DNA of 64,000 nt, taken from IMG/VR virus record IMGVR_UViG_3300045988_187372; one strand, written 5' to 3'. This document shows, one piece after another, positions 7,108 through 63,945 of the stretch (position 1 is the first letter of the stretch; each line of letters begins with the position of its first letter). The position numbers and the translations under genes are program-made. A model generated the notes under the pieces. The model saw nothing but the letters and a program-made list of their open reading frames with translations. It made no database searches and was not told where the DNA came from. This stretch comes from a virus.

Positions 7108-7123
7108 AATATGACAGAAAAAA
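7108..7123 (-). promoter_or_regulatory. conserved promoter motif
   Basis: AATATGACAGAAAAAA upstream of 6207..7073. Confidence 0.6.
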
Positions 7124-18221: not shown

Positions 18222-20771
18222 CTATGAACATAACTTCTTAAGGTTATTCCTCATACCGGCTGACTCAAACTGGAAAACATTCTTAGTTCTTCCTTTTGCA
18301 TATACTTCTTTGTATACCTTATCAGCTTTAGGACCCTCTAATGGAATATTCATTACATCAATTACTTCTCCTGTATCTCTCTGAATCATTCTGAGTGTGT
18401 CGGTAATAATTGTAAGAGTTTTTAATCCAAGAAAATCCATTTTTAATAATCCATTAGCTTCGCACTGAATCATATCCATTTCTGTAGTTTTAATTCCCTT
18501 TTTTCCATCTCTAATAGGAATATAATCAGTAACATCATTACTATCATAAATAATAACACCTGCGGCATGTTGTCCGTATGTCGTAAGCATACCTTCACAA
18601 TGAGCTGCAATATTAAGAATAGAAATAGCATCTGGATTACTATTATATTCATCCTTTAAGAAATCTAACAAAGAAATGCTGTCCTGAATATTAATGCCTA
18701 ATTCATCAACCTTATTAGTATCTTTCATGCCAACAATATCTTCAAAATTAGTTGCTTTAGCAGGCACTTTCTTACGAATCTGATCTCCTAAAGATAAGAA
18801 TTTCTTTTCATCATCATAAGCTTTCTTTCCATAATATCTTGCAGCATCTCTGATAGCACCTTTAGCCTGCTGTCTTGATTCTGTAATAATTCCAACAACA
18901 GCTTCACTACCATATTTAGCTCTTACATACTCAATTGTCTTTTCTCTTACTCCAAGAGCAAGATCACTATCGATATCAGGCATACTTACTCTTTCTGGAT
19001 TTAAGAATCGTTCAAAAATCAGATTATACTTAAATGGATCAATTCCGGTAATACCAAGTAAATATGTAACCAATGAACCGGCACCTGAACCTCTTCCAAT
19101 GCCTATTCCAATTCCGGTATTATAATTGTGAGCCTTAACATACTCTTTTGCACCTTCAATTGTTAAAGGTACTTCTGATAGTTTATCCATAGGTACTAAT
19201 CCACAAATTCTTCCATATTCCAGGAAGTCCTTTACAATTAAATGATAATCGGCAAAGCCCATCTGAATGATAATATTAAGTTCGTATTCCATTCGTTTCT
19301 GATGTTCTTCATCCCATCCTTTTCCGTTAGGATATCTCCAATTAATTCCCTTAATTGCTTCAGATCTTAATAATTCGTTTGAGTCCTTGTTCTTATCAAA
19401 TACTGGATAATGATTAGATTTTTCTGGAATATAAGCACATCTTTTTCCAATTACATTTAAGTTATTGAGTGCTTCTGCAACCTGATCATCTGTTAATATA
19501 GCTGATAAGGCCTGAGCAAGTTCGTAAGGTGTTTTTACATATAACTCTTTATCTGATTCCGACTCACTTATCTTAATAAATCTTAAAAATTTAGCTACAT
19601 TACGCATATCAATACTTCTATCAGAATTATCTGCCATATGTGCATCATTAGCAGCAACTAATGGGATATTATGCTTCCTTGCTAACTGAGCTAACACAGG
19701 ATATGTTCTGCTTTCCATTTCAAGCCCATGATTCTGAACTTCAATGTAATAATTACCTGCTCCAAAAATTTCCTGATAAAAAAGCATTGTCTTTTCTGCT
19801 TCAGACATTAATTCTATTGGGCTTTTCTTTAATGATTCATAATGCTGTATCTTATTTTCATGATTAATATATTCCTCTACTTTAAGACTTATATCCTTTA
19901 ACTCGGCTTTCTTAGCATTAACTAATTTTCTGACATTAGGAATTTTATCTTTAGCTTCCAGAATTTTATTATTTATCTCCTCATATTCGTTAATCAGTTT
20001 AATAAGCTCTGGATCATCATCATTTAAACACTTTCTTGCATCTCTTAATTTTCTTGAAATCTGTGTTCTTTCTGATTTAAGTTCCTTGGAATCACGAATA
20101 TTAATCAATTCATCTAAATCTGCCGATACCCTTTCAAATTCATCTTTAGCTGAAAGATATTCTTTATCATCAGGACTTATACAATCACGTATAACTAGCT
20201 CGTCTTTTTCAGTAGTATGCTGCTGTGCTTTTCTTTCTCTGTTAATCATTTTATCCAAAACATCATCTGATAATAATTGCAGAGCTGGTGCACCCGAAAC
20301 GCAAGCTGAAGTTGCTATTATATCACCGTTAAAGTTATATTTCTTTAAATCTGATATTGTAATAACAGGCTTTCCCATTCTTTTTTCAGAAGCCTTAGAA
20401 TTTAACTTATCAATAATATGCTTGCCTCTTTCTGAAGTGGCTAACATAATAATATGGCCAATCTGTTCATTTATCTTAAATGGTGGCACTTCAATATAAG
20501 CCTCTACGCCATAAATGATATTAAATGGATGTTCCTCAGTACTTATTTTCTTAGCGTAATCAATACATGTTTGCATTGCTGAAAATGATGCATGGTCCGT
20601 AACAGCAAATTTAGTATATCCTGCATTAAATGCAGCATCTAAATAACTTTTAGGTTCATCTACGGCATCAAACAAAGAGCCTCCTGGATGGTTATGTTCA
20701 CACACTGTAACTCCTGATTCAATAACCTTTTTTGTTAATTCTCCAATTTTTACATGTTCAAACATTGACAT
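18222..20771 (-). CDS. dnaE: DNA polymerase III alpha subunit, N-terminal fragment (PHP + palm)
   Basis: AVTDHASFSAMQ (PHP), YIEVQNHGLEME...PLVAANDAHM, PDIDSDLAL, KMDFLGLKTLTII, ends QFESAGMRNNLKKLCS* exactly where the C-fragment gene resumes; promoter 20805-20820. Confidence 0.9.
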   Translation of the reverse strand: MSMFEHVKIGELTKKVIESGVTVCEHNHPGGSLFDAVDEPKSYLDAAFNAGYTKFAVTDHASFSAMQTCIDYAKKISTEEHPFNIIYGVEAYIEVPPFKINEQIGHIIMLATSERGKHIIDKLNSKASEKRMGKPVITISDLKKYNFNGDIIATSACVSGAPALQLLSDDVLDKMINRERKAQQHTTEKDELVIRDCISPDDKEYLSAKDEFERVSADLDELINIRDSKELKSERTQISRKLRDARKCLNDDDPELIKLINEYEEINNKILEAKDKIPNVRKLVNAKKAELKDISLKVEEYINHENKIQHYESLKKSPIELMSEAEKTMLFYQEIFGAGNYYIEVQNHGLEMESRTYPVLAQLARKHNIPLVAANDAHMADNSDRSIDMRNVAKFLRFIKISESESDKELYVKTPYELAQALSAILTDDQVAEALNNLNVIGKRCAYIPEKSNHYPVFDKNKDSNELLRSEAIKGINWRYPNGKGWDEEHQKRMEYELNIIIQMGFADYHLIVKDFLEYGRICGLVPMDKLSEVPLTIEGAKEYVKAHNYNTGIGIGIGRGSGAGSLVTYLLGITGIDPFKYNLIFERFLNPERVSMPDIDSDLALGVREKTIEYVRAKYGSEAVVGIITESRQQAKGAIRDAARYYGKKAYDDEKKFLSLGDQIRKKVPAKATNFEDIVGMKDTNKVDELGINIQDSISLLDFLKDEYNSNPDAISILNIAAHCEGMLTTYGQHAAGVIIYDSNDVTDYIPIRDGKKGIKTTEMDMIQCEANGLLKMDFLGLKTLTIITDTLRMIQRDTGEVIDVMNIPLEGPKADKVYKEVYAKGRTKNVFQFESAGMRNNLKKLCS

Positions 20772-22071: not shown

Positions 22072-22086
22072 ATATGACAGAAAAAT
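22072..22086 (-). promoter_or_regulatory. conserved promoter motif
   Basis: ATATGACAGAAAAAT upstream of 20883..22034. Confidence 0.6.
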
Positions 22087-31008: not shown

Positions 31009-31025
31009 AATATGACAGAAAAAAT
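31009..31025 (-). promoter_or_regulatory. conserved promoter motif
   Basis: AATATGACAGAAAAAAT upstream of helicase-nuclease. Confidence 0.6.
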
Positions 31026-31202: not shown

Positions 31203-32777
31203 TTACTTAGTAGAATTCTTTTCTGACTTAGACACTTTTTCAGGAACATTCTTTACAGTTACCTTAATCTCCGGATCAGCATCTTCTGGAATGCCTGTAA
31301 AGTTCACATTCTTTGTTGTCTTGGCATCATATGTATTAGCCTTCATTACTTCTGTAAGATCAAAACCGGTTGTTTCCTTAACAGATTCAATTGTCTTTGC
31401 AAGTACTGATGGTACATTACTGCTAAATGAACCTACTCCGGTTTCTCCATTACCACTATCAATAATTGTTACCTTATCAATAGCTTCTAATGGCTTTGCA
31501 ATAGCTCCTGCCATCTCAGGAAGTACCTTGATAATCATTTCAGTCATGGCAGCCTTACCATACTTAGCCATTGCATCTGCTTTCTTCTCCATAGCTTCAG
31601 CTTCAGCTAATCCCCTTGCCTTAATACTTTCAGCATCAGCAACACCTTTTGCCTTAATACTCTCTGCTTCTGCAAAGCCCTGTGCCTTAACTGCTTCAGC
31701 TTCCTGTTCCTTAGCAAATCTGTCTGCTTCTGCCTGTGATTTCTTAGCTTCAGCCTGCTTCTGAATTTCAAACTGCTTTGCTTCTGCTTCCTTCTGTCTC
31801 TGATAAAGTTCTGCATCTGCCTTCTGCTGTGCTGCATACTTTTCAGCTTCAGCCTGCTTACGGATATCAGCATCAAGTGTCTTTTCCTTAACAGTGATTT
31901 CCTTTTCTCTTAATTCAATTTCCTTTTCCTGCTTTGCAATATTAGCATTGGCAGTTGTAATTTCAATTGTCTTTCTCTGTTCCTGCTGCTGGATTTCATA
32001 TGCCGCATCAGCTTCAGCCTTCTTGACATCTGCTGCTCTCTTTAATTCCTGCTTCTTAATCTCAAGTTCATTATTTCTTTCTGCAATAGCTGTCTCAGCT
32101 TCAATTCTTGCATCATTAGCCTGCTTTTCAGCATTAGCCTTTGCAACTGCAATATCTCTTTCTGATTCTGCTCTTGATATCTGTGCTGACTTACTGATAC
32201 TTACAACCCTGTCAATACCAAGGTTTTCAATAACATTACCTTCATCAGTAACATTCTGAACATTAAAGCTTACAATTTCAAGACCCATTCTTTCCATATC
32301 AGGAGCAGCATTCTCCTGTACCTTTTCAGCAAATAACTTTCTGTCCTGTACAATATCCTCAAGCTTCATCTGTCCTATAATTTCACGGACATTACCTTCA
32401 AGTACATCTACAACTGATTCTCTGATATAATCTGAATTTTTATTAAGGAAGTTACTTGCCGCTTTCCCAAGCATTTCAGGTGATGAACCAATCTTAATCT
32501 TTACAGCAGAATCAATATTAACATTGATATACTCATTTGTTGGTACTGATTCCTTTGTCTTGACATCAACAGAAATCATCTTTAAATCAAGTTTATCAAC
32601 TCTCTGTAAAAATGGTATCTTAAGTGATGACCTTCCAATTACATACTTAGGTGTCTTTCTAAGTCCTGATACAATAAGTGCCTTGTCTGTCGGAGCCTTA
32701 ATATAACTTGCAAATAATAATGCAATTAATACTACAACCACCGCTACTACAATTCCAATCGTTACTTCAATTCCCAT
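31203..32777 (-). CDS. flotillin / SPFH (band-7) domain protein
   Basis: N-terminal TM helix, SPFH core (KALIVSGLRK...ISVDVKTKE...), long Ala/Glu/Lys-rich coiled coil. Confidence 0.8.
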   Translation of the reverse strand: MGIEVTIGIVVAVVVVLIALLFASYIKAPTDKALIVSGLRKTPKYVIGRSSLKIPFLQRVDKLDLKMISVDVKTKESVPTNEYINVNIDSAVKIKIGSSPEMLGKAASNFLNKNSDYIRESVVDVLEGNVREIIGQMKLEDIVQDRKLFAEKVQENAAPDMERMGLEIVSFNVQNVTDEGNVIENLGIDRVVSISKSAQISRAESERDIAVAKANAEKQANDARIEAETAIAERNNELEIKKQELKRAADVKKAEADAAYEIQQQEQRKTIEITTANANIAKQEKEIELREKEITVKEKTLDADIRKQAEAEKYAAQQKADAELYQRQKEAEAKQFEIQKQAEAKKSQAEADRFAKEQEAEAVKAQGFAEAESIKAKGVADAESIKARGLAEAEAMEKKADAMAKYGKAAMTEMIIKVLPEMAGAIAKPLEAIDKVTIIDSGNGETGVGSFSSNVPSVLAKTIESVKETTGFDLTEVMKANTYDAKTTKNVNFTGIPEDADPEIKVTVKNVPEKVSKSEKNSTK

Positions 32778-35526: not shown

Positions 35527-38061
35527 CTATAATTCTAATTCGTCATCAAATATTCTATTTTCCTTATGTTCTACTTTAGATAAATTCTTTAAATCTAACT
35601 CATCTGCTGCCTTTACTGTTACTTTTTCTAATTCCTTATTGGCAACAGGATTATCTAATTTTTCAGATTTACCGCAAAATTCATTAGAAATATAATCAAG
35701 GTCATACGATGATACTACCTTTGCATTCTCTTTCAGACCTTCTTTTTGAACATCTAGTGGATATAATGAGAACACTGTATCAGCCTCTTTTATATCAGTT
35801 GTAAGCTCTCCGCAGCCTTCGGCATATAAATCAAATAATTGTTTCATATCTGGAATAGCGTTATTTAATATATATCCTAATTCAACTGATGTCTGTTTAT
35901 TTAAATCATTTGAAACAACATTCTGCCCTAAATTTAAACTGCCTACATGGTCAATCCAATATGTCGCATCATTTTCTACATCATAAACACATGGAGTTGC
36001 CATGGTTGATGCTGCATTTATTTTAATTGGATGCTCAATCTGTGATATTTCGAACTGTTTTCCAAGGAAAATAACAGATCGTTCATCTTTAATAAAATCA
36101 ATAACCTCATCATAATCATCATATTCAGCATCATGATCCCTATGACATGCTTTTCTTGTATCCATATACTCACCTAAAGAACCCTCTTTTTCCATTTCAA
36201 TAAATTTAAGTCCTTCAGCTTTATTAAATGGCACTGAGAATCCATGAATTTCTACAACAGCATATTTAATACCGGCATCTTTCATAGCTTTTTTATCTAA
36301 TAAAACCATTTCAGTAGCACCATTTGGGGCATCTGTATAATCGCCACTATGTACACCAAATTTTCCGGATTTTAAATTATAATAATACAGGGTATCAACT
36401 GTTATGTTTTTATCATTATAAAACTTAACACTTAAATCAATGTCCCCTCTTACTTCATGTCCATTATTATCCTTATAATTTTTCCAGTATATTCCATAAG
36501 CTAATAAGTTTTTATCCTGATCACCTGATAATCTACTATATGGAGTAATAATATTACCTGCAGAACAATCTCTCATATCTCTTAAAGGAATTTTAATATC
36601 TTCTAATTTAGGGTCAATATATACTTTACCCAACTGTTTTGTATCTGAAATGTTATGAACAATAGTCTGTCTAATAATATTTCTTATATTATTCATTTGA
36701 GCATCTGAAAGATGTAACGGTTTATTATCTGAAACTAATAATTTTCCATTTTTATTCTTATAAATTCTATTCTCATGTTCTTTATTTCTTAATTCAAACG
36801 AATTATACATAGTAAGCATTGATTGCACAGGAACATTACAATACATAATTTTGTTTGCAATTGAAGTTAAAGCTAAACCATTACCTTCTTTTGCTGCTTC
36901 ATCAACATACTGAATATAATGTTGAACAAAATACCCAGGGAAATTATCCGCAAGTTTATTAAATTTTTGTACATTTTCAAATGATGAAACTTTAATAAGA
37001 TTATCTATCGCTTTTTCAAACTGTCTTGGGACTGGAATAATATCCTTACCGTTTTCATCCTTTTTTATTTTATTAGCAAGATTATCAAACGCTTTTACTA
37101 CTCTTTCAGGACCAGTATGTGAATCAATTCTATTCATTAATCTCTTATATAATCCTTCATCCTTCCAGATATCATAGTAAAGATTTGGACAGTTATTTAA
37201 CATATCCTTTATTAACCTTTTGTCTGAATTGGTTAACTTATATTTAACTTTGCCGTTCTTATTTGAAACTGTTTTCTTAGTATTTAATGATATATCATTA
37301 ACTTTGCTTCCAAAATTCTGATTTGAAAGTTCTGCTGCAAATCTTAATACATCTTTAGAATCCTTTATCATATTAACTGCTGAATTTCTTGCACCCAGTT
37401 TATATAATAGACTAGCTGTTTTAACTAAATTTTCTTTACTCTGATAAGGTATCTCGGTTGAAACAATTTGGTCAATTTTAAATGGATATTCACGAAAATA
37501 TGTTTCAACATCTTTCAAGTTTTCTTCATTCATACCTTTTGGCGCATGAATTCTATTTACCATTAATTCATCTAATTCTTTTATATTTGTATTATTAATT
37601 ACCTTTAATTTGTCAGGGAAGTTTTCCAATAATGGAAGCCTGTCAATTTTTTCCTCAGTTACAGAATCTCTTATCATTTGTGCTATCGTTTTACATCTTT
37701 CATCATCTGTCTGGGAAAATGTATAATATAATAACGAATTAATATATAATGCTTCCTCAGATTTATCCATGACTTCTTCCGGGAAATTAGGATAGAATAA
37801 CTCAACAGAATTAAATTCATCAATCCCTTTATATTCTTTAATAATATCTGTCAAATCATTATATACCCCACATATTTCCTGTGCAGGCAATTTAGCTAAT
37901 GCGGATATAGCATCCGTGCTTAATGTATAACCATAACTTTCCAAATTTCTATTGACTGATAAAGCCATATTAATGTTTTCATATTCAATATCAATGGGAT
38001 TTTGTGGGATTGAAAACTTAGATAGATTGTTAAATAAAATAGAATTAATAGATTTGTTCAT
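35527..38061 (-). CDS. large hypothetical protein (844 aa)
   Basis: long uninterrupted ORF with RBS GGAGG; no motif recognised. Confidence 0.6.
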   Translation of the reverse strand: MNKSINSILFNNLSKFSIPQNPIDIEYENINMALSVNRNLESYGYTLSTDAISALAKLPAQEICGVYNDLTDIIKEYKGIDEFNSVELFYPNFPEEVMDKSEEALYINSLLYYTFSQTDDERCKTIAQMIRDSVTEEKIDRLPLLENFPDKLKVINNTNIKELDELMVNRIHAPKGMNEENLKDVETYFREYPFKIDQIVSTEIPYQSKENLVKTASLLYKLGARNSAVNMIKDSKDVLRFAAELSNQNFGSKVNDISLNTKKTVSNKNGKVKYKLTNSDKRLIKDMLNNCPNLYYDIWKDEGLYKRLMNRIDSHTGPERVVKAFDNLANKIKKDENGKDIIPVPRQFEKAIDNLIKVSSFENVQKFNKLADNFPGYFVQHYIQYVDEAAKEGNGLALTSIANKIMYCNVPVQSMLTMYNSFELRNKEHENRIYKNKNGKLLVSDNKPLHLSDAQMNNIRNIIRQTIVHNISDTKQLGKVYIDPKLEDIKIPLRDMRDCSAGNIITPYSRLSGDQDKNLLAYGIYWKNYKDNNGHEVRGDIDLSVKFYNDKNITVDTLYYYNLKSGKFGVHSGDYTDAPNGATEMVLLDKKAMKDAGIKYAVVEIHGFSVPFNKAEGLKFIEMEKEGSLGEYMDTRKACHRDHDAEYDDYDEVIDFIKDERSVIFLGKQFEISQIEHPIKINAASTMATPCVYDVENDATYWIDHVGSLNLGQNVVSNDLNKQTSVELGYILNNAIPDMKQLFDLYAEGCGELTTDIKEADTVFSLYPLDVQKEGLKENAKVVSSYDLDYISNEFCGKSEKLDNPVANKELEKVTVKAADELDLKNLSKVEHKENRIFDDELEL

Positions 38062-42598: not shown

Positions 42599-42642
42599 TA
42601 TTTCTTCTCCTTTATTAATTATATTCTGATAGATATATGACA

Positions 42643-42658
42643 GAAAAATTAATAGGAG
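42643..42658 (-). promoter_or_regulatory. conserved promoter motif
   Basis: ATATATGACAGAAAAA upstream of 42212..42598. Confidence 0.6.
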
Positions 42659-43004: not shown

Positions 43005-44771
43005 TTATAAATCAAATACTAGCCTGTAATTTGCATTAAGAGCAATACTTACGTCATTATGACTTAAGCTATGTTTATTCATAAATCCGCAGGCATCAAG
43101 TTTAAAGATGATATCGTCAACATCATCTTTCCATAGTCCCCATTTTTTATCCTGATAATATATTTTTTCAAATAAATTAAAAAAGCTTGAATTTAAAATA
43201 AATTCCTTTATTTTCTTTTTAAGTATTCTATATTTGTTTGCATATTTTTTTATTGTATCTAACTTTTCTTTATATTTTTTTACAAGCTTTTGTTTGTCTA
43301 CTATGGGATTCCTCCGTGTAGCGCTAACAATTTTTCTTTTATTAACCTCTTTGATATTATTTTTTATCTGTTCAAGTCTGTCAGCATCTTCAGTAAGCTT
43401 TCGTGAAATTACATTTGAAGATACATGCAATTCTTTCATTATTTCCTTATATGTTTTACCCATTGCATATAATTCTACAATTTTATTATATTTAAATTCT
43501 CTTCGTTTTTTGTTTCTTTCTACCTGTTCTTTTTTCTTTAACTTTTCTTCCATTCTATAGCCTTCAAGATTTTTAAGGCCATATTCTCTTCTTGCTGTAA
43601 GTGGATCCAATCCTAACCCTTTTATGAAGGTCGTTGTTTTAAATTTACACCAATTCACATTATTAACATTATTAAAATCTTTGAATGTAAATAATTCTAA
43701 TTCATCAATTGATAATGGCTCTGAAGTTTTATTTGTTAGCTTCAGCATTTCCTTTTTGGCAGTTTCATCATCATATGCTGCTCTTAAAGTATTATATGCG
43801 TAATAGGCAAAATCTAATTTATCAACATACTTAGGAACAGCATCCTTAGCAAAATTATTAAGGAATTCTATTCTGTTTATTAAATTATCCTGTAAATATG
43901 AAGGAAGATTTAATTTATTGCTGTTTTTGCTGTCTGAATCTTCATAGTTTACAATATCATGCAATCTATCATTATTCTTTATAAAATATAAAGGATGTAA
44001 TGTGTTATATAAATCATGTACAGTTGTTTTATTCTTATTAATAAATAATAATGTTGGAGTCTCAAAATTTATTGCATCATAAGTTCCAGGTACACGAATT
44101 AAAGAGTCACATTTTACTGACTCTTTGTCTACTTCAGGGAAACCTAATGAAATTCCATTCATGTCTATTTGTTTATTTATAACCTGTGACAATACCTTTC
44201 CTACCAGATTATATTTCCACAAGAGATCCTTTGATAATTCTTCAATGCCATATATTAATTCAACTTCATTATATATAGCGTTAATAATATTAGGCTTTGG
44301 GGCATCTCCTAAAATACAATCATAGTTATTGAGGAAATATTGAATATTGTCTTTATAATCTTCTTCTGGCCATATTATTCTTACACATATAGCTTTTAGA
44401 CAGAATATATTTTTTTCACACCTAGCCATTCGCTTTTGTATTCTACTATGTGGTGTCTTACCAGTACTATACCCTGAAGTAGAAAAACCTATTTCAATTT
44501 TGTCGTAGAATTCTTTATCTGAAACAACAGATGTCTTTAATGGGTTAATGCACATATATCTATTATATTCTTCGTTCAAATAATCCTTATTGAGATTAGA
44601 AAGCACATCTTCTGCATTAGACCTAAAAACTGCTGTCTTAGATGAATCATTAACATTTAATGCAACAAATTGATAATGGCATTGATACTGCTTATTCTCT
44701 TGTTCTGTTATAAATTTAATAGCTCTCTTCTCATTTTTATCTGCACAATTTAAAAATTTTTGTTTTGTCAT
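43005..44771 (-). CDS. replication protein with PriCT-like motif and C-terminal HTH (putative)
   Basis: likely start MTKQKFLN at 44771 (promoter motif 44805-44820 sits inside the longer GTG-started track ORF); LIRVPGTYDAINFE resembles PriCT RvPGt.N motif; HTH YAMGKTYKEIMKELHVSSNVISRKL. Confidence 0.45.
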   Translation of the reverse strand: MTKQKFLNCADKNEKRAIKFITEQENKQYQCHYQFVALNVNDSSKTAVFRSNAEDVLSNLNKDYLNEEYNRYMCINPLKTSVVSDKEFYDKIEIGFSTSGYSTGKTPHSRIQKRMARCEKNIFCLKAICVRIIWPEEDYKDNIQYFLNNYDCILGDAPKPNIINAIYNEVELIYGIEELSKDLLWKYNLVGKVLSQVINKQIDMNGISLGFPEVDKESVKCDSLIRVPGTYDAINFETPTLLFINKNKTTVHDLYNTLHPLYFIKNNDRLHDIVNYEDSDSKNSNKLNLPSYLQDNLINRIEFLNNFAKDAVPKYVDKLDFAYYAYNTLRAAYDDETAKKEMLKLTNKTSEPLSIDELELFTFKDFNNVNNVNWCKFKTTTFIKGLGLDPLTARREYGLKNLEGYRMEEKLKKKEQVERNKKRREFKYNKIVELYAMGKTYKEIMKELHVSSNVISRKLTEDADRLEQIKNNIKEVNKRKIVSATRRNPIVDKQKLVKKYKEKLDTIKKYANKYRILKKKIKEFILNSSFFNLFEKIYYQDKKWGLWKDDVDDIIFKLDACGFMNKHSLSHNDVSIALNANYRLVFDL

Positions 44772-44804
44772 AAATAACCTCGCTATGAAAATCTTATATA
44801 TATC

Positions 44805-44820
44805 TTTATGACAGACAAAA
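44805..44820 (-). promoter_or_regulatory. conserved promoter motif
   Basis: TTTATGACAGACAAAA upstream of start 44771. Confidence 0.5.
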
Positions 44821-44882
44821 AAATTTTTTTTCTTACACAAAAAAAATAGTGCCATTTCTGACACTATTAAAACTTGGATATA

Positions 44883-51857: not shown

Positions 51858-52529
51858 TTAAGATTTTTTATTTTTAACTTTTTTAATTATGTTCCAATCC
51901 TCTTCTGTGAAATATGGATACATATCATAGACTGCAAATTCTCCATCTTTTTTAGAAATTGTATATTCTAAAACAATATGAAGTCCATGACAGTCAAAAG
52001 GAATATCATAGTTTGTACCTTTTACAATTCCTTTTCCTATAACCGTATTAGATACTATATCTATAACTAAACGATTATGTCTTCTATCGTTGTAATAAAT
52101 ATCTCTATCCTCACACCAGTTCTGAATTTTAGAAATAATAGAGGTATTATTTGAAGCAATTAAAACTCTCTCTAATGCTTCAGATGCACTTTCTAATGAA
52201 CCAAACCATGTAGGATGAAAGGTACCATTCTTAGCACCTTTCATCCCTTTCTTTTCTTTTGTAGCTTCAGAAATTTTATTTATAGCCCATGAAATTTCTG
52301 GAGCTATATGTTGTAGCACATGAGGAGTATGTTCCTCAACATAATCATTTGCTCCTGATCTGGTTTCAACCAAATCATTAGCTTCAAAATTAAAGAGATA
52401 TTCTTCTGCATCATAAAATTTTTCGATATATGATGCTACATTAAAAAAATCCTTTTTATATGTGCCAGCCTTTTTGTCTGACATAATTTCATTTAATTCT
52501 GCCATAGTGCAGCGTTCCTTTCTTCGCAA
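51858..52529 (-). CDS. hypothetical protein
   Basis: 223-aa ORF. Confidence 0.5.
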   Translation of the reverse strand: MRRKERCTMAELNEIMSDKKAGTYKKDFFNVASYIEKFYDAEEYLFNFEANDLVETRSGANDYVEEHTPHVLQHIAPEISWAINKISEATKEKKGMKGAKNGTFHPTWFGSLESASEALERVLIASNNTSIISKIQNWCEDRDIYYNDRRHNRLVIDIVSNTVIGKGIVKGTNYDIPFDCHGLHIVLEYTISKKDGEFAVYDMYPYFTEEDWNIIKKVKNKKS

Positions 52530-52979: not shown

Positions 52980-55313
52980 TTATCCAAACTGTTGTCTTTT
53001 TATTAAAATATTATTATATATTTCATCCCAGTATTTATTTATAGCATCAATTTCTTGTTGATCAGTTAATGCGTTCTTATCGATAATAACATCATCAAGA
53101 CTTTTTATAACAGTATTAGCAGTTTTATAATCTGAAATATTAGTATTCTCAGCTTCTTTTAAAGCATCATATGCTTTTTTGTAACAAAAACTGGCATTTT
53201 CATAATTAGGAAAATCGATTTGGAAAAAATCTTTTTTACCAGAATTATAATTACATTTTTTTCCTTCCCAGTCAATATAATGCTCATAAATAGTTTCAGG
53301 TTTCTCAAATTCCTTATTATCTAAATTCTGGTGCAAATATTCATTAAACTGCTTCCATATTTCTCCACATATTGCTGAACCATTATCAAAATTTTTAGGA
53401 ATATCATATCCGGTCCATATACATGTTGTGTAATATGGTGTATATGCACATAGCCAAGAGTCCTTGTTATCATTCGTTGTTCCAGTTTTTCCTGCACAAA
53501 TCTGATTATCTATTTGATAATTTTTGACGTATCCTTCTGTAAAATTTGAAATTAAACAATCTGTCATCATATAAGCGGTGCCTTTTTTATATACTTGAAT
53601 ATCTTCTTTATTTTGATATATTTCTTCATTTTGACGCAACATATGTTTGATGCATGTATTATTATTGTATTTACCATTATTAGCTAATGCATTGTATGCT
53701 TTAGTCATGTTTTCTACTGTTACACCATTTGTAAAACCACCTATGGCAATTGCAGCATTATTATTATCTTCATATGAAATATTATAAAAGTGCATTTTAT
53801 TTAAATACTCTAAACAATTATTTATTCCAACATTCATTAATGTTTTAACAGCCGTTGTATTGACTGATTGTAATAAAGCTGTTCTTACTGAAATATTGCC
53901 TCTGTAATATCCATCATGATTTTTAGGCTGATATTTACCCTCAAGTGGAGAATCCAAAATCATAGATGATGGATGATAGTCTAAAATATCAAAAGCCGGA
54001 GCATAATCTAATATTGGTTTAATGGAAGAGCCTGGTTGTCTAGGAGATTGATATGCTCTATTTATATATTCATTATCTTCTTGTCCACCTATAATTGCTC
54101 TAACATATCCAGTTTCATTATCAATACACATGGATGATGTTTGAAGAAGATGCCGCCCATCCTCGGATAAGCTGTTATCATATTGTGATAAAACATTTTT
54201 TGAAATTTGTAATAGCTCAAGCTGCTTATCTTTATCTATTGAAGTATATATCCTGTATCCTCCAGTTAATATTTCTTCTTTGTACTTAGAGTATATTTTA
54301 TTATATTGATTAATATAATCTTGCTCATCTTCTGAAGAATCAAAAAGGTATTTAAAATTAAATCTATTTATTTCCATAAGATATTCAATAGAACATTTAA
54401 GTGTATATGAAAATTCATAAGATGTTGGTAAATCAGATGTTTCTTTATATAAAATTAAATCAAGAGGATCTTCTAATGCTTCATTGTATTGTTTTTCTGT
54501 AATTATTTTCTGATTATACATTGTATTAAGGACTTGATTTCTTTTACATATTGCTAATTCATAATTTGTTTCAGGATTATATTTTGTAGGGGCATTTGAA
54601 ATACCTATTAACATTGCGGCCTGAGATATTGTTACATCAGATGCATCACATCCAAAATAATATTTACAAGCTGCCTGAATTCCGTAACAATTGCTGCCAT
54701 AGAAATTAGAGTTTAAATACATTTCAAGTATTTGTTCTTTAGAATATGATTTTTCCATTTCAAGTGATGCTATTATTTCAGTAAGTTTTCTATCTATTGT
54801 TTTGTTTGAATTTTTTATAACAATATTTTTTACAACTTGTTGTGTGATTGTACTGCCGCCCTGAGTTATTTTCCCTTTATTCTTTATATAAGCCAAAGAA
54901 GCTCGTAACAATGCTTTAGCATCAATACCTTTATGAATATAGAAATTCTTATCTTCCACAGCAATATATCCTTGTATTATATAATCACTGACATCGCTGA
55001 TATTAACATATTCATAAGAGCCGTTAATATTAGCTGCCATTAATGTACCGTCATCATAATAAAAGTATGTATTCAGTTCTTTATTAAATTCATCTTGGTT
55101 CATATTTTGTAATGACTCATACGCATTCTCCTGTGCCAATTTGAATTTACTATAAAATTTGATATAAAATACTGATAATGATATTAAAGATAATAATATG
55201 ACTATCATAATAATCAATATAAAAATTTTAAATATGGTTAAAAGATGATTTTTCTGTTTTTTTAGTGGAATATTTTTATCATCATTATAAAGTGGTTGTT
55301 TTTTAGAACTCAT
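52980..55313 (-). CDS. class A penicillin-binding protein (glycosyltransferase + transpeptidase)
   Basis: N-terminal TM anchor; GT51 motifs [12 protein letters not shown] and GGSTITQQ; transpeptidase SxxK (PGSSIKP), SVN, KTGTT. Confidence 0.85.
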
Positions 55314-55344
55314 AATTATTCTCCTTTATATTTATTTACACAAT

Positions 55345-55360: not shown

Positions 55361-55368
55361 AACAAAAA

Positions 55369-55391
55369 GCTCCCACCATTAAGGTGAGAGC
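55369..55391 (-). terminator. intrinsic terminator
   Basis: GCTCTCACCTTAATGGTGGGAGC + TTTTTGTT. Confidence 0.6.
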
Positions 55392-55577
55392 TATAATCAA
55401 AGTTGCTAGTAGAATTGTAAAATTCTATTAAAGTGTATTTTACGACAAAATTACCGGCTTTAACAAAAGTGCTAGTCTTTGAGGAGGCATATATGTATGC
55501 CTAATATGTACCGACAATATTTTATCACATTGTAAATTATAATACAATATTGATTTAATCATTATATGACAGATTTT
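55385..55577 (-). ncRNA. candidate small RNA unit between two promoter motifs
   Basis: promoter motif 55563-55577, hairpin AGGCATATATGTATGCCT, terminator 55369-55391, then second promoter 55345-55360 for PBP gene; only a 16-codon ORF without RBS. Confidence 0.35.
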
Positions 55578-55590
55578 TGATTGCAAATTT

Positions 55591-56724
55591 TTACATAATT
55601 TTATTTTTGCCTGTTCTTTTAGCTTTATACAAATTTTTATCTGCTGCATCAAATAAATCGTGAACGGTATTATTTTTCTTATATTCTGTTATTCCTCCAG
55701 AGAAAGTAAATTGCTGCGGAATATTCTCATATTTAATATTGTTGAATTTAATTCTGATATCGTTAATTATATTATACGCCTCAGTATATTCATAATCTGC
55801 AAATAATATTCCGAATTCTTCGCCTCCATATCTGGCGACAAAAATATTTGATTGGTTAATATTTTGAAGTTCCTTAGCTAAATTAATTAAAACAGTATTT
55901 CCAAATTCATGTCCATATGTATCGTTAACTGATTTAAAATCATCTATATCTATTATACAAAAATAAAGTTTTTTCTTATATGATATCCATTTCTTTGTTG
56001 TATTAAAAAGAGACATATAATTATCTAATCGAGTTAATCCATCTTGTGAAATTTCTTTTAGTAATTGTGCATTTCTATTTTCAGATAAAACCAGTTTAAG
56101 TTCTTTTTCTTTCTCATATTTAATAACAAGTCTCGAATAAATATATGCAAATATTGTTATGATACATGATAAAAACATATATATTAAATAATTTGATGGT
56201 AACTTATTTAATTCAGAGATTGATGATAATGAAATTGTAATAATTTCAAATTGACTTATCAAAAATAATTGCCAATTAACCTTGTTACTACCATATACAA
56301 TACACATAAAAATTGGGCAGGCTATTAATGTATATAATACCGGATAATTATAATGAATGATAATTGAAACCACTATAATTAAAGTTAAAATATACAAAGG
56401 CATGGCTTCATATATTTCTGGTTTAATATTATCTTGATATTTTCTTATAATATGTCTACCGGTAAACCATATTATTAAATTAGATGTAGTAGGTATAAAT
56501 ACATTCAATATAATATAAGATAATATATTTATTGTTTGTTTTTCTATTATTATATGTATTGGTATAAATAATAATTCAAAAACAAATATTGTGATTATTA
56601 TAAGAAGGTTAATAGCCATTATTTTATTTTGAAATTTATTATACAAATATGCATATAAACTGGTTTGTTTTTCTGTATGCTCTATTGTATTATCTTGTAT
56701 TTTAATTTTTTCTATTGTTTTCAT
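55591..56724 (-). CDS. membrane-anchored GGDEF diguanylate cyclase
   Basis: multi-TM N-terminus; DIDDFKSVNDTYGH...RYGGEEFGILFAD. Confidence 0.85.
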   Translation of the reverse strand: MKTIEKIKIQDNTIEHTEKQTSLYAYLYNKFQNKIMAINLLIIITIFVFELLFIPIHIIIEKQTINILSYIILNVFIPTTSNLIIWFTGRHIIRKYQDNIKPEIYEAMPLYILTLIIVVSIIIHYNYPVLYTLIACPIFMCIVYGSNKVNWQLFLISQFEIITISLSSISELNKLPSNYLIYMFLSCIITIFAYIYSRLVIKYEKEKELKLVLSENRNAQLLKEISQDGLTRLDNYMSLFNTTKKWISYKKKLYFCIIDIDDFKSVNDTYGHEFGNTVLINLAKELQNINQSNIFVARYGGEEFGILFADYEYTEAYNIINDIRIKFNNIKYENIPQQFTFSGGITEYKKNNTVHDLFDAADKNLYKAKRTGKNKIM

Positions 56725-56865: not shown

Positions 56866-58080
56866 TTACTCTGTTGCATCATAAAATTCTTTCTCCGGAT
56901 ACAATTCATTCAAATTTTCTGCTAAATCAATTTCTTCAAGTAAAGCATTATAATTCATTTTGATTTTTTCAGATTTAATTAAACTTAACATAGCATCTGC
57001 AATTACAGGATCAAATTGAGTACTTTTACCTTTTTCAAGCTCATTGATTACAATTATTGAATCTAAATGTTTTCTATATACTCTGTCACTTGTCATTGCG
57101 TCAAAGGCATCTGCCACAGAAATAATCCTTGCAATATAAGGTATTTGTTCTCCCTTTAAGCCATCTGGGTATCCTTTTCCGTCATATCTTTCATGATGAT
57201 ATTTTGCTCCTAAATCAATGTCCTTAAGCATTGACATATCTTTTAAGATATTTCCGCCTATTACTGTGTGGTTCTTCATTACTTGGTACTCTTCATTTGT
57301 TAATTTTCCTGGTTTGTTTAATATGCTATCCGGAATTCCTAGTTTTCCTATATCATGCAATAGTGCTATTGAATGAATATCTTCAATCTCATTTTTATTC
57401 ATTCCTAATTTATATGCTAATAAGGCTGTATAATCTGCTACTCTGGTTGAATGGCCTTTGGTGTAATTATCTCTGGCATCGATAATATTTGCTATAGTTG
57501 TAACTGTTTGGAGAGACATTTTATTAATTTGTTCTATTTGATTTATTATTGTTTGTGTATTTTGCAAATTTAGGTCTGTATTTCTTTTATAAAACTTTGA
57601 AACAATATATGCTGCAGCAAAGCATAAAATAATTATTGCAAGTTGTATCTCCATGTCTTTGCCACCTGATTTATCAATTTTATTATATGTTTTAATAAAT
57701 ATTGCCGTAATATTCAACACTGTCGAAAATAAACCGGTTACTATAATTAAAGTTGGATCATAATATAAAATTAAAAGCAGGATAATTGGGAATATATAAG
57801 TAAAACATAAAACAGTATTTCCTGTAAATAAGGTAAATGTATACATTATTAAAAACGAGAATGTTACAAAATATTTTAAAAATAGCCAGTTTTTATTATA
57901 AATAAAAACCAACCACCCTGTTAAATTCGGGATACTAATTAATATAGCAAATATTGCAAAATATGGTGGTGATATAGCATGTTTTAACATTTCACCAAAA
58001 TAAATGCCTAATAGTGTTATTGTTATTACTGACCAACCACATAAAAGTGATGTATTTAATCTTTCTTGTTCTCTATCCAT
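56866..58080 (-). CDS. membrane-anchored HD-GYP phosphodiesterase
   Basis: multi-TM N-terminus; HSTRVA...LLHDIGK...HHERYDGKGYPDGL. Confidence 0.85.
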   Translation of the reverse strand: MDREQERLNTSLLCGWSVITITLLGIYFGEMLKHAISPPYFAIFAILISIPNLTGWLVFIYNKNWLFLKYFVTFSFLIMYTFTLFTGNTVLCFTYIFPIILLLILYYDPTLIIVTGLFSTVLNITAIFIKTYNKIDKSGGKDMEIQLAIIILCFAAAYIVSKFYKRNTDLNLQNTQTIINQIEQINKMSLQTVTTIANIIDARDNYTKGHSTRVADYTALLAYKLGMNKNEIEDIHSIALLHDIGKLGIPDSILNKPGKLTNEEYQVMKNHTVIGGNILKDMSMLKDIDLGAKYHHERYDGKGYPDGLKGEQIPYIARIISVADAFDAMTSDRVYRKHLDSIIVINELEKGKSTQFDPVIADAMLSLIKSEKIKMNYNALLEEIDLAENLNELYPEKEFYDATE

Positions 58081-58116: not shown

Positions 58117-58133
58117 TATATATGACAGATAAT
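58117..58133 (-). promoter_or_regulatory. conserved promoter motif
   Basis: TATATATGACAGATAAT upstream of HD-GYP gene; no motif between HD-GYP and GGDEF genes (operon). Confidence 0.6.
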
Positions 58134-58453: not shown

Positions 58454-59740
58454 TTACTGAGCTGCTGTAAATTCAACAAAATATTCTATAGTACTTTGCT
58501 GATCCTGATATACAATAATTTCATCATTACATAAACTATGGCCCGCATGAGCAAAAGTACAATGAGCGCCAGGACATCTCTGTTGTAAAACATTATAAGT
58601 TAAATCACTTTCAGCAGATGTTACATCATATGTTTTACCAGTAGCCACTTTGAAAATGCCTAAATATCCAATTGCTTCACTACCATGAGTCCAATAAGAA
58701 CCGGAGCTTGAAGTATATCCCATCGATTTTTTTGCCTTATTAGCAAAATATGTACCTAATCCAAACATCTTTCCATTAGTTACAACTCCAACTGGATTTA
58801 TTGTTAAACCATTAGTTATAATGGACCAGAAGTTTTCTGATCTTGAACCATGAAATAAATGAGATATTCCATTATTTTCATCACTTAAATTTTCTTTAGC
58901 ACAATATTCATTGAAAGCCTTTTCGGTCTTTTTATTAATGATTCTCCAAGCATTTTTATATTGCTTTGCATTTTCTCCCATAAGCTTCTTGATTTTAGTC
59001 TCTTCTTCGTCAGATACAGGTCTCCATTCAAGTCCATAGGCCTGAAGAACTGTTGGCATAGTGTCATATTTAGCTAAATTACTATTAGATCTTACCTGAG
59101 AATACACAATATCAAACAGTTCCTGCTCTTTGTCAATGATATCAACAAATTCAATCTTTCTTTTAGCCAAATGTTTAGATAAATTATCCATTCTTCTAGG
59201 AATTGCAGCATATAATACTTTTAATTTATTATTAAACTCTGCAATTGACATAGAATCATGGTTCTTAGCTAATTCAATCAAAATCGAATTACCATATTCA
59301 AGCATCTCATCTGAAATATCTTCAACTGAAGTTGAATAATTATCTGAAATAACCTTATTAGCGTATGAAAGCAGTTTTGTTATAATAGAATCAACAGAGA
59401 AAATTCCAGTCTGTGCATATGTACCGCCATTAAAACTTAAACCTTTTTTTGTAATCTTTTTTTTCTCCATTTTTTGAGTCTTTGTAAGCAACCAACCTCT
59501 ATTTACCTTAGACAAATAAAAAGAATCCCAATTAGTCATAGGAAGTGAATATGTCCTTGGCCTGTTCCTTCCTATCCTGATTCCAATTCTACCTTCAGTA
59601 ACATCAAAAACATTCTTATTATTGGCATTAACCTGCATAATAATCTGTTGATTATTACCTTTACCTGTAGCTGTTTCTGCAACATAATTAAGTTCCAAAT
59701 ATTCATGATTTGGTATTGTATTTATATCTGCCTGTTTCAT
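58454..59740 (-). CDS. PARP-like ADP-ribosyltransferase (WGR-like N-term + catalytic domain)
   Basis: LFHGSRSENFWSIITNGL...GKMFGLGTYFA...NDEIIVY parallels PARP1 LLWHGSRTTNFAGILSQGL...GYMFGKGIYFA...YNEYIVY (H-Y-E triad present). Confidence 0.8.
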   Translation of the reverse strand: MKQADINTIPNHEYLELNYVAETATGKGNNQQIIMQVNANNKNVFDVTEGRIGIRIGRNRPRTYSLPMTNWDSFYLSKVNRGWLLTKTQKMEKKKITKKGLSFNGGTYAQTGIFSVDSIITKLLSYANKVISDNYSTSVEDISDEMLEYGNSILIELAKNHDSMSIAEFNNKLKVLYAAIPRRMDNLSKHLAKRKIEFVDIIDKEQELFDIVYSQVRSNSNLAKYDTMPTVLQAYGLEWRPVSDEEETKIKKLMGENAKQYKNAWRIINKKTEKAFNEYCAKENLSDENNGISHLFHGSRSENFWSIITNGLTINPVGVVTNGKMFGLGTYFANKAKKSMGYTSSSGSYWTHGSEAIGYLGIFKVATGKTYDVTSAESDLTYNVLQQRCPGAHCTFAHAGHSLCNDEIIVYQDQQSTIEYFVEFTAAQ

Positions 59741-61392: not shown

Positions 61393-61406
61393 ATATGACA
61401 GACATA
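61393..61406 (-). promoter_or_regulatory. conserved promoter motif (minus) of a divergent pair
   Basis: AATATGACAGACAT upstream of 60594..61310; mirrored + motif 61414-61428. Confidence 0.55.
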
Positions 61407-61413
61407 AAAAATA

Positions 61414-61572
61414 AAATCTGTCATATATATAAATAGCGTTTTATTAAAGGAGGAAATGTTATGTAGTTTTTTTGATTAAAAATTAATTTAGTATTGTAGA
61501 TTCAAAGACGGGTGAATTTGCAATAATTAAACATAAAAAAGGTTGAGCTTTATTGCCCAACCTTTTTTTTCT
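61414..61572 (+). ncRNA. plus-strand mini transcription unit with start-stop micro-ORF
   Basis: + oriented promoter motif AAATCTGTCATATAT 61414-61428, strong RBS AAAGGAGGA, ATG-TAG (61461-61466) at optimal spacing (or 7-codon ORF from 61456), terminator hairpin + T8 at ~61538-61572. Confidence 0.35.
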
Positions 61573-62691: not shown

Positions 62692-62706
62692 TTTTCTGTC
62701 ATATCT
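62692..62706 (+). promoter_or_regulatory. conserved promoter motif in + orientation
   Basis: TTTTTCTGTCATATC ~35 nt upstream of relaxase start 62740. Confidence 0.55.
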
Positions 62707-62739: not shown

Positions 62740-63945
62740 ATGTCAGATAAATCTTATACAATTTGCAAAATCATGAAATTAAATTCACTAAATGCTAATG
62801 GCAGATATAGTGTTAGATCTGCAGGCGAACATAATTTAAGGGAGTATGTACCATATAATTGTGATTCTGAAAAACAAAATTTAAATAAAGATATTGTTGA
62901 ACTTCCTAAAATGCTTAATGGAAGCCATTACTCCTATCAGACTGTTGTAAAAAATGCAATTAAAGAAATTCAAGATAATGGTACAATGGGAAAAGTTCGT
63001 CCTGATGCAGTTTATGCATTTGAAATTTGTCTAGGTTTTAATCCGGCAGATGGAAAGGACTGGAAAGATATTATTTCAGAAAAAGACCTAGATAAATGGT
63101 GTCAGGAAAATAAAAAATGGCTTGAAGAGCGTTTTGGTAAAAACAATTTAAAGCATTTAGTATTACATATGGATGAATCAACTCCTCATTTACATGCTTT
63201 AATTGTTCCTATTAATAATAAAGGTAGGTTAAGTGCTAAATCATTTATTAATGGCCCGACTGATTTATCAAAATTGCAGACTGAATATGCCAAGAAAGTA
63301 GGCTTACAATTTGGGTTGTCAAGAGGTGTTTCTAAAAAAGAAATAAGAGCTTCTAAAGAATTGGAAAATAAATTATATCCTAACTATTCTGATATGTCTA
63401 AATTCAAAAAAGCCACTCTTGGTAAAATAAAGGATGAAAGTGAAATAATAAAGGTTAACCCGAAAGAATTAGATAGTAATGGGCATATTTTGCCATCTTA
63501 CGAAGAAAGAGTGTTAGGTGAATTTCAGAATGTAAAATATCATTATTTAACTTTAGAAAATTCATTACGCCAGGAATTAAAAGAAGAACTAAAGCAAGAA
63601 ATAAAAAAAGTAGATACAGACTTTGAAAGGATTGCACTTGAAAAAGAAGAATTTGAAAAAGAAAAAAAGAAAAAAGATGCAGAGTTAAAACAAAAAGAAG
63701 AGGAACTTATTTCAAAAGAACATGAGTTACAGAAGCTATTAGGTGTATTAGAAAGTACAAAAAAATCAATCAGGGAAATCAAAAAAGATTATACATATTT
63801 TGAAACATTAAATCGTGCCCTTAAGCATGAATCTAATAAGGATATTGCTAAAGATTTATATAAACAGTTAAATAAGTTAGTTGAAGAACAGCATAAAAGA
63901 GATAAAGAAAATATTCATGCAATTAAACAATTTGATATAAGATAA
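62740..63945 (+). CDS. MobV-family relaxase (plasmid recombination enzyme Pre/Mob)
   Basis: LVLHMDESTPHLHALIVPI = HxDE...PHxH motif III; N-terminal ...NLRE; C-terminal coiled coil; + strand promoter motif 62692-62706; terminator hairpin 63946-63985. Confidence 0.75.
   Translation: MSDKSYTICKIMKLNSLNANGRYSVRSAGEHNLREYVPYNCDSEKQNLNKDIVELPKMLNGSHYSYQTVVKNAIKEIQDNGTMGKVRPDAVYAFEICLGFNPADGKDWKDIISEKDLDKWCQENKKWLEERFGKNNLKHLVLHMDESTPHLHALIVPINNKGRLSAKSFINGPTDLSKLQTEYAKKVGLQFGLSRGVSKKEIRASKELENKLYPNYSDMSKFKKATLGKIKDESEIIKVNPKELDSNGHILPSYEERVLGEFQNVKYHYLTLENSLRQELKEELKQEIKKVDTDFERIALEKEEFEKEKKKKDAELKQKEEELISKEHELQKLLGVLESTKKSIREIKKDYTYFETLNRALKHESNKDIAKDLYKQLNKLVEEQHKRDKENIHAIKQFDIR

Follow-up and report, generated by a model that had tools for sequence, protein, structure and literature searches.

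The 64,000-nucleotide stretch filed as IMG/VR virus record IMGVR_UViG_3300045988_187372, referred to here as the window, carries a gene for a class A penicillin-binding protein (PBP) at 52980..55313 on the minus strand. The open reading frame (ORF) starts with ATG, its coordinates include the stop codon, and its product is 777 amino acids (aa) long. A GT51 glycosyltransferase (GT) domain occupies aa 98-265 (54519..55022, minus strand), with motifs 1 to 4 matched and E120 and E179 as catalytic residues. In a Pfam scan of the protein, this domain matched PF00912 (Transgly) at 2.6e-56, with 190 bits against a cut-off of 27, and the alignment ran over profile positions 12-177 of 178 in one unbroken stretch. 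Because that match is uninterrupted, the GT domain is read as being without a GI-type insertion. The transpeptidase (penicillin-binding) domain, aa 396-627 (53433..54128, minus strand), contains S429xxK432, S483xN485, and K609TG611 and matched PF00905 (Transpeptidase) at 1.9e-22, with 80 bits against a cut-off of 22. The motifs were also placed by script, those of the GT domain at aa 120-131, 152-159 (GGSTITQQ), 175-179 (RKLTE), and 192-201, and those of the transpeptidase domain at aa 429-432 (SSIK), 483-485 (SVN), and 609-612 (KTGT). From hydrophobicity and a structural model, a transmembrane anchor is predicted near the N terminus, at about aa 24-50 (55164..55244, minus strand), after a short basic cytoplasmic tail. 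It falls in the single hydrophobic segment of the protein, approximately aa 20-55, the sole place with Kyte-Doolittle windows above 1.6. The C-terminal region, aa 640-777 (52983..53396, minus strand), appears from alignment and model to consist of a small beta-rich module followed by a helical tail; the module is kept in the PBP1A proteins of Clostridia, with P672 invariant and G684 nearly invariant in the alignment. The original prediction for this locus had described a full-length bifunctional class A PBP with all catalytic motifs and an N-terminal anchor, and the ORF, Pfam scan, motif script, and model all agree with that description.

The residues expected to matter for catalysis are conserved far beyond the closest relatives. 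In alignments of 50 to 52 homologues, reaching down to 29% identity, E120, D121, E179, S429, K432, S483, N485, K609, T610, and G611 were invariant. An AlphaFold2 model built on the homologue alignment had a mean predicted local distance difference test (pLDDT) score of 86 and a predicted template modeling (pTM) score of 0.70, and it placed the anchor segment within a long helix of aa 17-69, with folded domains thereafter. The best fold match in the Protein Data Bank (PDB), found with Foldseek, was Staphylococcus aureus PBP2 (3dwk, 2olv; E of ~1e-36), followed by Acinetobacter baumannii PBP1a and Escherichia coli PBP1b; the top matches were full-length bifunctional PBPs with a probability of 1.00. 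A sequence search of the PDB agreed, matching S. aureus PBP2 over aa 84-667 at 1.5e-56. The two proteins share the same catalytic motifs and align over ~635 columns in the fold comparison. However, they are only 25 to 27% identical, and the protein encoded in the window extends further at its C terminus, by a helical tail of ~110 aa. Two strain variants of the PBP gene differ by 23.5 to 24.5 synonymous and 6.5 to 7.5 nonsynonymous changes, giving a pN/pS of 0.06 to 0.075. The protein shows every predicted feature of an active class A PBP, and the gene appears to be under purifying selection.

The database relatives of the PBP at 47 to 67% identity are denoted P0002 to P0012; every other match was at 45% identity or below. 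In a neighbor-joining tree, the window PBP and P0002 to P0012 were monophyletic in 200/200 bootstraps. Homologues in verified chromosomal settings were 40 to 45% identical to the window PBP. Two of the next-best matches were checked for context: P0014 lies near alaS, and P0116 adjoins a Lyase_1 (argininosuccinate-lyase-type) gene and a prephenate dehydrogenase gene. The nearest chromosomal homologues are from Clostridia. The chromosomal PBP1A proteins of gut Clostridia, such as P0116, resemble the window PBP in domain order, motifs, and the small C-terminal module, but they are 925 to 1050 aa long, have a long C-terminal tail that is missing in the window PBP, and are encoded among housekeeping neighbors. 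The contexts of P0002, P0005, P0009, and P0012, in contrast to those chromosomal settings, resemble the window, with genes for helicases, ParA, thymidine kinase, PARP, and flotillin, for DUF5688, a topoisomerase, and a 5'-3' exonuclease, and with many unknown genes. A ParA-type gene (CbiA/AAA_31 matches) lies near the PBP gene in the P0005 element, and related elements carry huge surface proteins and an LCP ligase. Phylogeny against host PBPs and synteny in related elements were two of the checks that the original prediction had proposed, and both were run. Because the clade was recovered in all bootstraps and its members sit in element-like contexts, whereas chromosomal homologues are at most ~45% identical, the gene appears to be old in this element family, with no sign in the tree of recent capture from any sampled host.

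The nature of the replicon was judged from ~115 kb, comprising the window and ~50 kb of flanks partly taken from contigs of other strains, out of an element of at least 246 kb. The window has a GC content of 28.0%, nearly all of its genes are on the minus strand, and its GC skew is negative almost throughout. A MobV-family (Mob_Pre) relaxase gene lies at 62740..63945 on the plus strand (PF01076 at 3.9e-30; NF041497 at 143 bits, cut-off 100). On related contigs, a VirD4-like coupling protein of 982 aa, belonging to the CD1115 family, is encoded 3.6 kb past the window end; it scored 446 bits against NF045973 (cut-off 250), and its closest plasmid relative, at 43% identity, is on the Ruminococcus albus 7 megaplasmid. 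A further 5 to 7 kb beyond VirD4 are genes for a CD1110-family VirB4 ATPase (859 bits against NF045971, cut-off 325) and PrgI (PF12666 at 1.6e-20). The relaxase, type IV coupling protein, and VirB4-type ATPase by which a conjugative element is recognized are all present. Leftward extension past the window yielded just small ORFs without assignment and TnpB genes; no replication initiator was identified in the window-linked stretches that were fetched. The exact PBP and its neighbors occur on metagenomic contigs of 190 to 389 kb labeled as human gut; contigs of the element include ERZ1314582 NODE_7 (246,483 bp), OCHC01000010.1 (322 kb), and ORTQ01000005.1 (389 kb). The contig names ZELL14-1 and MCDO18-1 suggest an origin in fecal cohorts.

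The record is filed as a virus, and the original prediction had placed the murein synthase on a phage-like replicon where it might remodel peptidoglycan during infection, with a large plasmid carrying cell-wall functions as its alternative. A jumbo phage or phage-plasmid would account for a 95-kb IMG/VR "viral" contig that carries the PBP gene at 99% identity, for the match of the PBP to phrog_33002 (1.2e-46) and of many replication genes to PHROGs, and for the few deposited jumbo-phage records that have class A PBP-like genes, for example mtgA of Microcystis phage MaAM05, at 30% identity. It does not account for a full conjugation set of MobV, VirD4, VirB4, and PrgI. When the larger ORFs of the window and ~50-kb flanks were compared with Pfam, none matched a family of capsid, terminase, portal, or tail proteins; 20 window ORFs scanned against PHROGs gave no structural family; and megablast of 24 kb found no match in 50,697 phage or 72,556 plasmid records. 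Moreover, a 2026 preprint documents that geNomad and VirSorter2 consistently label giant conjugative megaplasmids of the gut as viral (PMC12934698), so the presence of the element in IMG/VR fits a known artifact. The filing of element fragments as viruses is probably a misclassification like that of the Hodor megaplasmids described there. We regard a phage, and with it a role of the PBP in infection, as very unlikely; it was the plasmid alternative that the conjugation genes bore out. The Hodor elements are conjugative megaplasmids of >300 kb from gut Bacillota, filed as viral by detection pipelines, with a GC content of 44.6 to 47.1%, a MOBH-type relaxase, and Rep_3/ParAB, and with no PBP mentioned (PMC12934698). 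Identity of the present element with Hodor was excluded by the 28.0% GC and MobV relaxase of the window. Element fragments of 95 to 103 kb are filed as viral genomes under IMGVR_UViG_3300029581_000240 and IMGVR_UViG_3300045988_182851 (L004, L037, L038), and a scan of IMG/VR using a 1284-aa neighbor protein gave no match.

A second question was whether the window comes from the chromosome of the host, or from an integrative and conjugative element inserted there, in which case the PBP would be the host's own class A enzyme. In favor of this, the window encodes proteins usual in chromosomes (RecA, DnaE, RecJ, an RpoD-like sigma factor, and a PBP), its genes are almost all on one strand with a negative GC skew across nearly its whole length, and contigs with the same proteins reach 479 to 760 kb. 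The gene content otherwise speaks against it. There is no tRNA in the 64-kb window, and the ORFs scanned in the ~115 kb gave no match to ribosomal, aminoacyl-tRNA-synthetase, or metabolic and other housekeeping genes; most ORFs have no family, and DnaE is encoded in two separate parts. A scan of 185,579 GTDB species representatives gave no close relative of the PBP, and the 28% GC of the window compares with 35 to 37% at the loci of the nearest chromosomal PBP homologues. No contig of >1 Mb carries the genes, and the element has its own promoter-like motif, described below. Evidence of a chromosomal origin, which the original prediction had named as what would refute it, was not found, given the lack of housekeeping genes among the ORFs scanned, of tRNAs in the window, and of a close GTDB match, and we give such an origin very little credence. 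Taken together, the conjugation set and the lack of phage structural and housekeeping matches among the ORFs scanned point to a plasmid-like element, and on this predicted gene content we conclude that the replicon is a giant conjugative plasmid-like element, neither phage nor chromosome. Among cellular proteins, those most similar to the window RecA come from Lachnospiraceae, at 73 to 75% identity.

The closest described case, compared here by its published description, is that of the Inocles, giant oral plasmid-like elements of 245 to 395 kb with a GC content of 24 to 32% and with VirB4 and VirD4 (Kiguchi et al. 2025, PMC12340149). A protein with an N-terminal transmembrane helix, a transglycosylase domain, and a transpeptidase domain, named a "bifunctional transglycosylase," is conserved across the four Inocle taxa (PMC12340149). 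Giant size, low GC, VirB4/VirD4, an own DNA polymerase III, RecJ, helicases, a sigma factor, and the conserved bifunctional transglycosylase are thus common to both. However, Inocles are oral, have Streptococcus salivarius as a candidate host, and are rare in feces (PMC12340149), whereas the contigs here are from the gut and their nearest cellular homologues from Lachnospiraceae and other Clostridia, so that neither the oral habitat nor the Streptococcus host is matched. The Inocle marker InoC is a protein of about 454 aa with an N-terminal PF13814 replication-relaxation domain (PMC12340149); PF13814 had no match among the ORFs scanned in the ~115 kb, which is less than half of the element.

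A full-length class A PBP and low GC are also found in the conjugative toxin plasmids of the pCLK and pCLJ type (257 to 274 kb) from Clostridium botulinum and Clostridium sporogenes. The pCLK-type PBP is 39% identical to the window PBP over 83% of the query, and the same 31-kb stretch of pCLK encodes helicases, a topoisomerase, a sigma-70 factor, and an HD-GYP protein. pCLK shows no nucleotide similarity and no TCTGTCATAT motif, its PBP falls outside the element clade with 1% bootstrap for joining it, and its PBP gene adjoins FtsE/FtsX-like genes. More broadly, 626 plasmid records gave tblastn matches to class A PBP-like genes, which means that large plasmids carrying a PBP are no rarity. The statement in the original prediction that a murein synthase on such a replicon is unusual was overstated, given that such genes are present on Inocles (PMC12340149) and are annotated on megaplasmids of C. 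botulinum, Clostridium perfringens, and Bacillus.

Upstream of the PBP gene are two genes for enzymes of cyclic di-GMP (c-di-GMP) turnover. The nearer encodes a membrane-anchored diguanylate cyclase with the GGEEF motif present (55591..56724, minus strand; PF00990 at 3.7e-32), and the next a membrane-anchored phosphodiesterase with HD and GYP motifs present (56866..58080, minus strand; PF13487 at 1.2e-38); both proteins have multi-pass membrane N termini. The order HD-GYP, GGDEF, PBP is common to the window and the P0005 element, in which the PBP is 62% identical (L013 7486-9758). In the P0002 element, an HD-GYP gene lies two genes upstream of the PBP gene (L035 1624-2868), and in a sister-clade element, P0019, a GGDEF-EAL protein is encoded immediately upstream (L019 8226-9860). 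A chromosomal Clostridia PBP1A (L017) also has a GGDEF-EAL gene ~2.6 kb, or three genes, upstream. Farther along, a gene for a PARP-catalytic-domain protein of 428 aa lies at 58454..59740 (minus strand; PF00644 at 1e-18). A PARP-domain gene is near the PBP module in two lineages, the second being that of the P0005 element (L013 14057-15346). An anti-phage defense system at the locus was considered and ruled out by PADLOC, which gave no match for the PBP, GGDEF, HD-GYP, and PARP proteins and six other nearby proteins. A 223-aa protein encoded two genes downstream (51858-52529, minus strand) resembles the bacterial CdiA-CT RNase A toxin domain, though below threshold: it scored 24.3 bits with PF18431, for which the cut-off is 27.

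The motif TCTGTCATAT recurs throughout the window, in 28 exact copies and in 61 with at most one mismatch, against 9.8 +/- 3.0 expected. The exact copies are on the coding strand in 25 of 28 cases and lie 20 to 45 nucleotides (nt) upstream of a start codon in 18; an AAAGGAG-type ribosome-binding site is usually visible after the motif, which often stands 3' of a terminator hairpin. Exact sites include 1390-1399, 7109-7118, 22072-22081, 31010-31019, 42635-42644, 58120-58129, and 62695-62704, and a subset of copies has a second box, TTATGTAAAA, ~15 to 20 nt upstream. A further exact copy, P2 (55347..55356, minus strand), lies 33 nt upstream of the PBP ATG and is followed by the AAAGGAG ribosome-binding site of that gene (55321-55327, minus strand). 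Between the GGDEF gene and P2 is an intrinsic-terminator-like hairpin (55368..55392, minus strand) with a 10-bp stem, 6 GC pairs, and a T run. A motif search placed a second copy, P1 (55564-55573), directly after the GGDEF stop codon; it has an upstream TTATGTAAAAA box, and ~170 nt of noncoding sequence follow it up to the terminator, P1 and this leader together spanning 55393..55573 on the minus strand. The whole 281-nt GGDEF-PBP intergenic stretch folds with a z of -5.35 against shuffles, and the layout of P1, RNA, terminator, and P2 is also present in L013. The RNA from P1 to the terminator could be a small RNA or a regulatory leader. A c-di-GMP-class riboswitch upstream of the PBP gene was suspected from the neighboring genes and rejected, the leader giving chance-level Rfam matches (E of 0.38 or above); no Rfam family reached its gathering score anywhere in the window.

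The motif is a property of the element family. It is common to the related element lineages L013, L015, L035, L036, and L025, lying 29 to 37 nt upstream of the PBP start in L013, L015, and L036 (which include the P0005, P0009, and P0012 lineages) and 117 nt upstream in L035 (the P0002 lineage). Neither the chromosomal loci nor the sister-clade locus P0019 (L019), pCLK, or the Brachyspira locus has it. Judging from the position of the motif, the PBP gene would be transcribed by the same machinery as the replication and transfer genes of the element, and the element's own RpoD-like sigma factor (8353-9381) may direct transcription from TCTGTCATAT. At 61393-61426, in an intergenic region beside the few plus-strand genes, two copies face each other as an inverted repeat (ATATGACAGA ... 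TCTGTCATAT), perhaps serving as two divergent promoters or as an operator.

The chemistry of GT51/transpeptidase class A PBPs is established from enzymes such as S. aureus PBP2 and E. coli PBP1b. In the proposed mechanism, the single N-terminal helix would hold the protein in the host membrane with both catalytic domains on the outside of the cell, the GT51 domain (E120, E179) would polymerize host lipid II into glycan strands, and the transpeptidase domain would cross-link the stem peptides via an acyl-enzyme at S429. Expression would most likely proceed from the gene's own copy of TCTGTCATAT whenever the general gene set of the element is on, independently of host PBP regulation, so that plasmid-bearing cells would have an extra, element-controlled peptidoglycan synthase. 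Its most plausible role would be to supplement or repair the wall, as class A PBPs do in Firmicutes; the envelope of the host would also be loaded by such elements with a type IV secretion system (T4SS). With HD-GYP and GGDEF genes immediately upstream in several lineages, the PBP is probably part of a module concerned with the envelope or lifestyle. In Clostridioides difficile, the class A PBP named PBP1 is an essential septal synthase (PMC10693644, PMC12539705), and if the host resembles C. difficile, the element PBP could reach into host division. Against this, the window PBP has neither a GI-type insertion nor the long C-terminal tail of the chromosomal homologues.

A role closer to transfer was weighed as well, in which the PBP rebuilds or reinforces peptidoglycan round the type IV secretion channel after local hydrolysis. 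The PBP gene is 7.4 kb from the relaxase gene and ~12 to 25 kb from those for VirD4, VirB4, and PrgI, and Gram-positive T4SSs must breach a thick wall. In related elements, however, the PBP gene is found among replication, partition, or surface-protein genes, away from the T4SS genes, and in the window it stands behind the general element motif rather than a transfer-specific signal. Known Gram-positive T4SSs use hydrolases, and a synthase partner is undescribed. We consider repair at the conjugation site unlikely. Mobile PBPs can also confer resistance, of which mecA is the established example, and an extra copy of a class A enzyme could raise tolerance to wall-acting drugs in an antibiotic-exposed gut, so the gene could be an accessory determinant, a low-affinity or additional PBP giving beta-lactam or moenomycin tolerance. 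The known mobile low-affinity PBPs are of class B, though, not class A, and scans of the neighboring window ORFs found no mecR/blaR-like regulators or other resistance genes. Conservation of the gene across deeply diverged lineages, at 47 to 65% identity and under purifying selection, fits a core function better than recently selected resistance cargo, and a resistance determinant seems quite unlikely. None of these rival roles, whether in phage infection, as a chromosomal gene, in resistance, or in repair at the conjugation site, is favored by the data.

We consider it likely, from the evidence of sequence and predicted structure, that the gene encodes a functional bifunctional class A PBP and has long been part of the core gene set in a family of giant, low-GC, plasmid-like conjugative elements of human gut Clostridia. 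Several observations weigh against this interpretation. Against TIGR02074, the PBP1A family, the PBP scored 475.2 bits (E = 2.8e-142) over profile positions 3-535 of 535 and so missed the curated cut-off of 508.75 bits; by its sequence it appears to be a divergent member of its class lying just under that cut-off, which is probably the reason that relatives often bear no fuller name than "transglycosylase domain-containing protein." The unread remainder of the element could hold a prophage or a structural module, and the contigs of 479 to 760 kb leave integration or misassembly possible in some samples. The c-di-GMP neighbors are absent beside the PBP gene in the P0009 lineage, none are visible in P0012, and a terminator parts the GGDEF gene from the PBP gene; with that terminator and the absence in P0009, the c-di-GMP/PBP link is positional, not operonic. 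Finally, TCTGTCATAT is called a promoter from its position.

A broader reading is offered tentatively, as possible but doubtful. On this reading, the window may come from a family of giant conjugative elements in the gut that has yet to be described. The family would be the low-GC gut equivalent of the oral Inocles, would probably have Lachnospiraceae as hosts, and would run its own sigma factor and TCTGTCATAT regulon, in which the class A PBP, the c-di-GMP enzymes, and the P1-RNA-terminator-P2 leader form a switch on host wall synthesis or division. If true, an element-controlled wall switch would matter most where hosts need a class A PBP for septation, as C. difficile does (PMC10693644, PMC12539705).

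The gene for DnaE, the alpha subunit of DNA polymerase III, is divided between two ORFs that lie 5.7 kb from each other, with the break inside the finger domain: one part, at 18222-20771 (minus strand), matches phrog_405 positions 48-660, and the C part, at 10817-12502 (minus strand), matches positions 661-1103 and is preceded by its own near-consensus copy of TCTGTCATAT. Between them lie a 5'-3' exonuclease, an RlaP-type nucleotidyltransferase, and unknown genes. A split-intein DnaE was considered and rejected: the parts abut exactly in the profile, the Pfam finger overhangs are 2 and 4 residues, and the C part starts in the finger. The window also encodes RecA, RecJ, two UvrD-type helicases, a DnaG-type zinc-ribbon protein, the RpoD-like sigma factor, a DNA methylase, a guanylate kinase, two CAAX proteases, and Lar. 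An 844-aa protein (35527-38061, minus strand) partially matches the MXAN_6230/SCO0854 RING-domain family and phrog_33734, a 619-aa protein (43005-44864, minus strand) has a weak sigma-70-like region, and a flotillin/SPFH protein (31203-32777, minus strand) is also kept near the PBP gene in the P0009 lineage. Insertions that vary between strains (L010-L012 in the left flank, L025 2367-3500, L037 15286-16404) comprise IS605-type TnpB/OrfB genes in several places and, in some strains, an HNH endonuclease gene that adjoins DUF5688 and has no counterpart in the window.

Giant plasmids of gut and oral Firmicutes are just now gaining recognition, and many are filed as "huge phages," so the correction from phage to conjugative plasmid matters for the curation of viral databases. 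Beyond the PBP itself, more interest attaches to the element family and its promoter-like motif, to the split DnaE, and to the c-di-GMP/PBP module and the structured leader within it. Every sampled lineage of one gut element family conserves a class A PBP. This is a second, independent case beside the Inocles, and it suggests that giant Gram-positive plasmids repeatedly resort to supplying a peptidoglycan synthase of their own. Should the enzyme alter host wall growth, division, or beta-lactam tolerance, a transmissible element would be modulating the antibiotic response and envelope physiology of abundant gut commensals.

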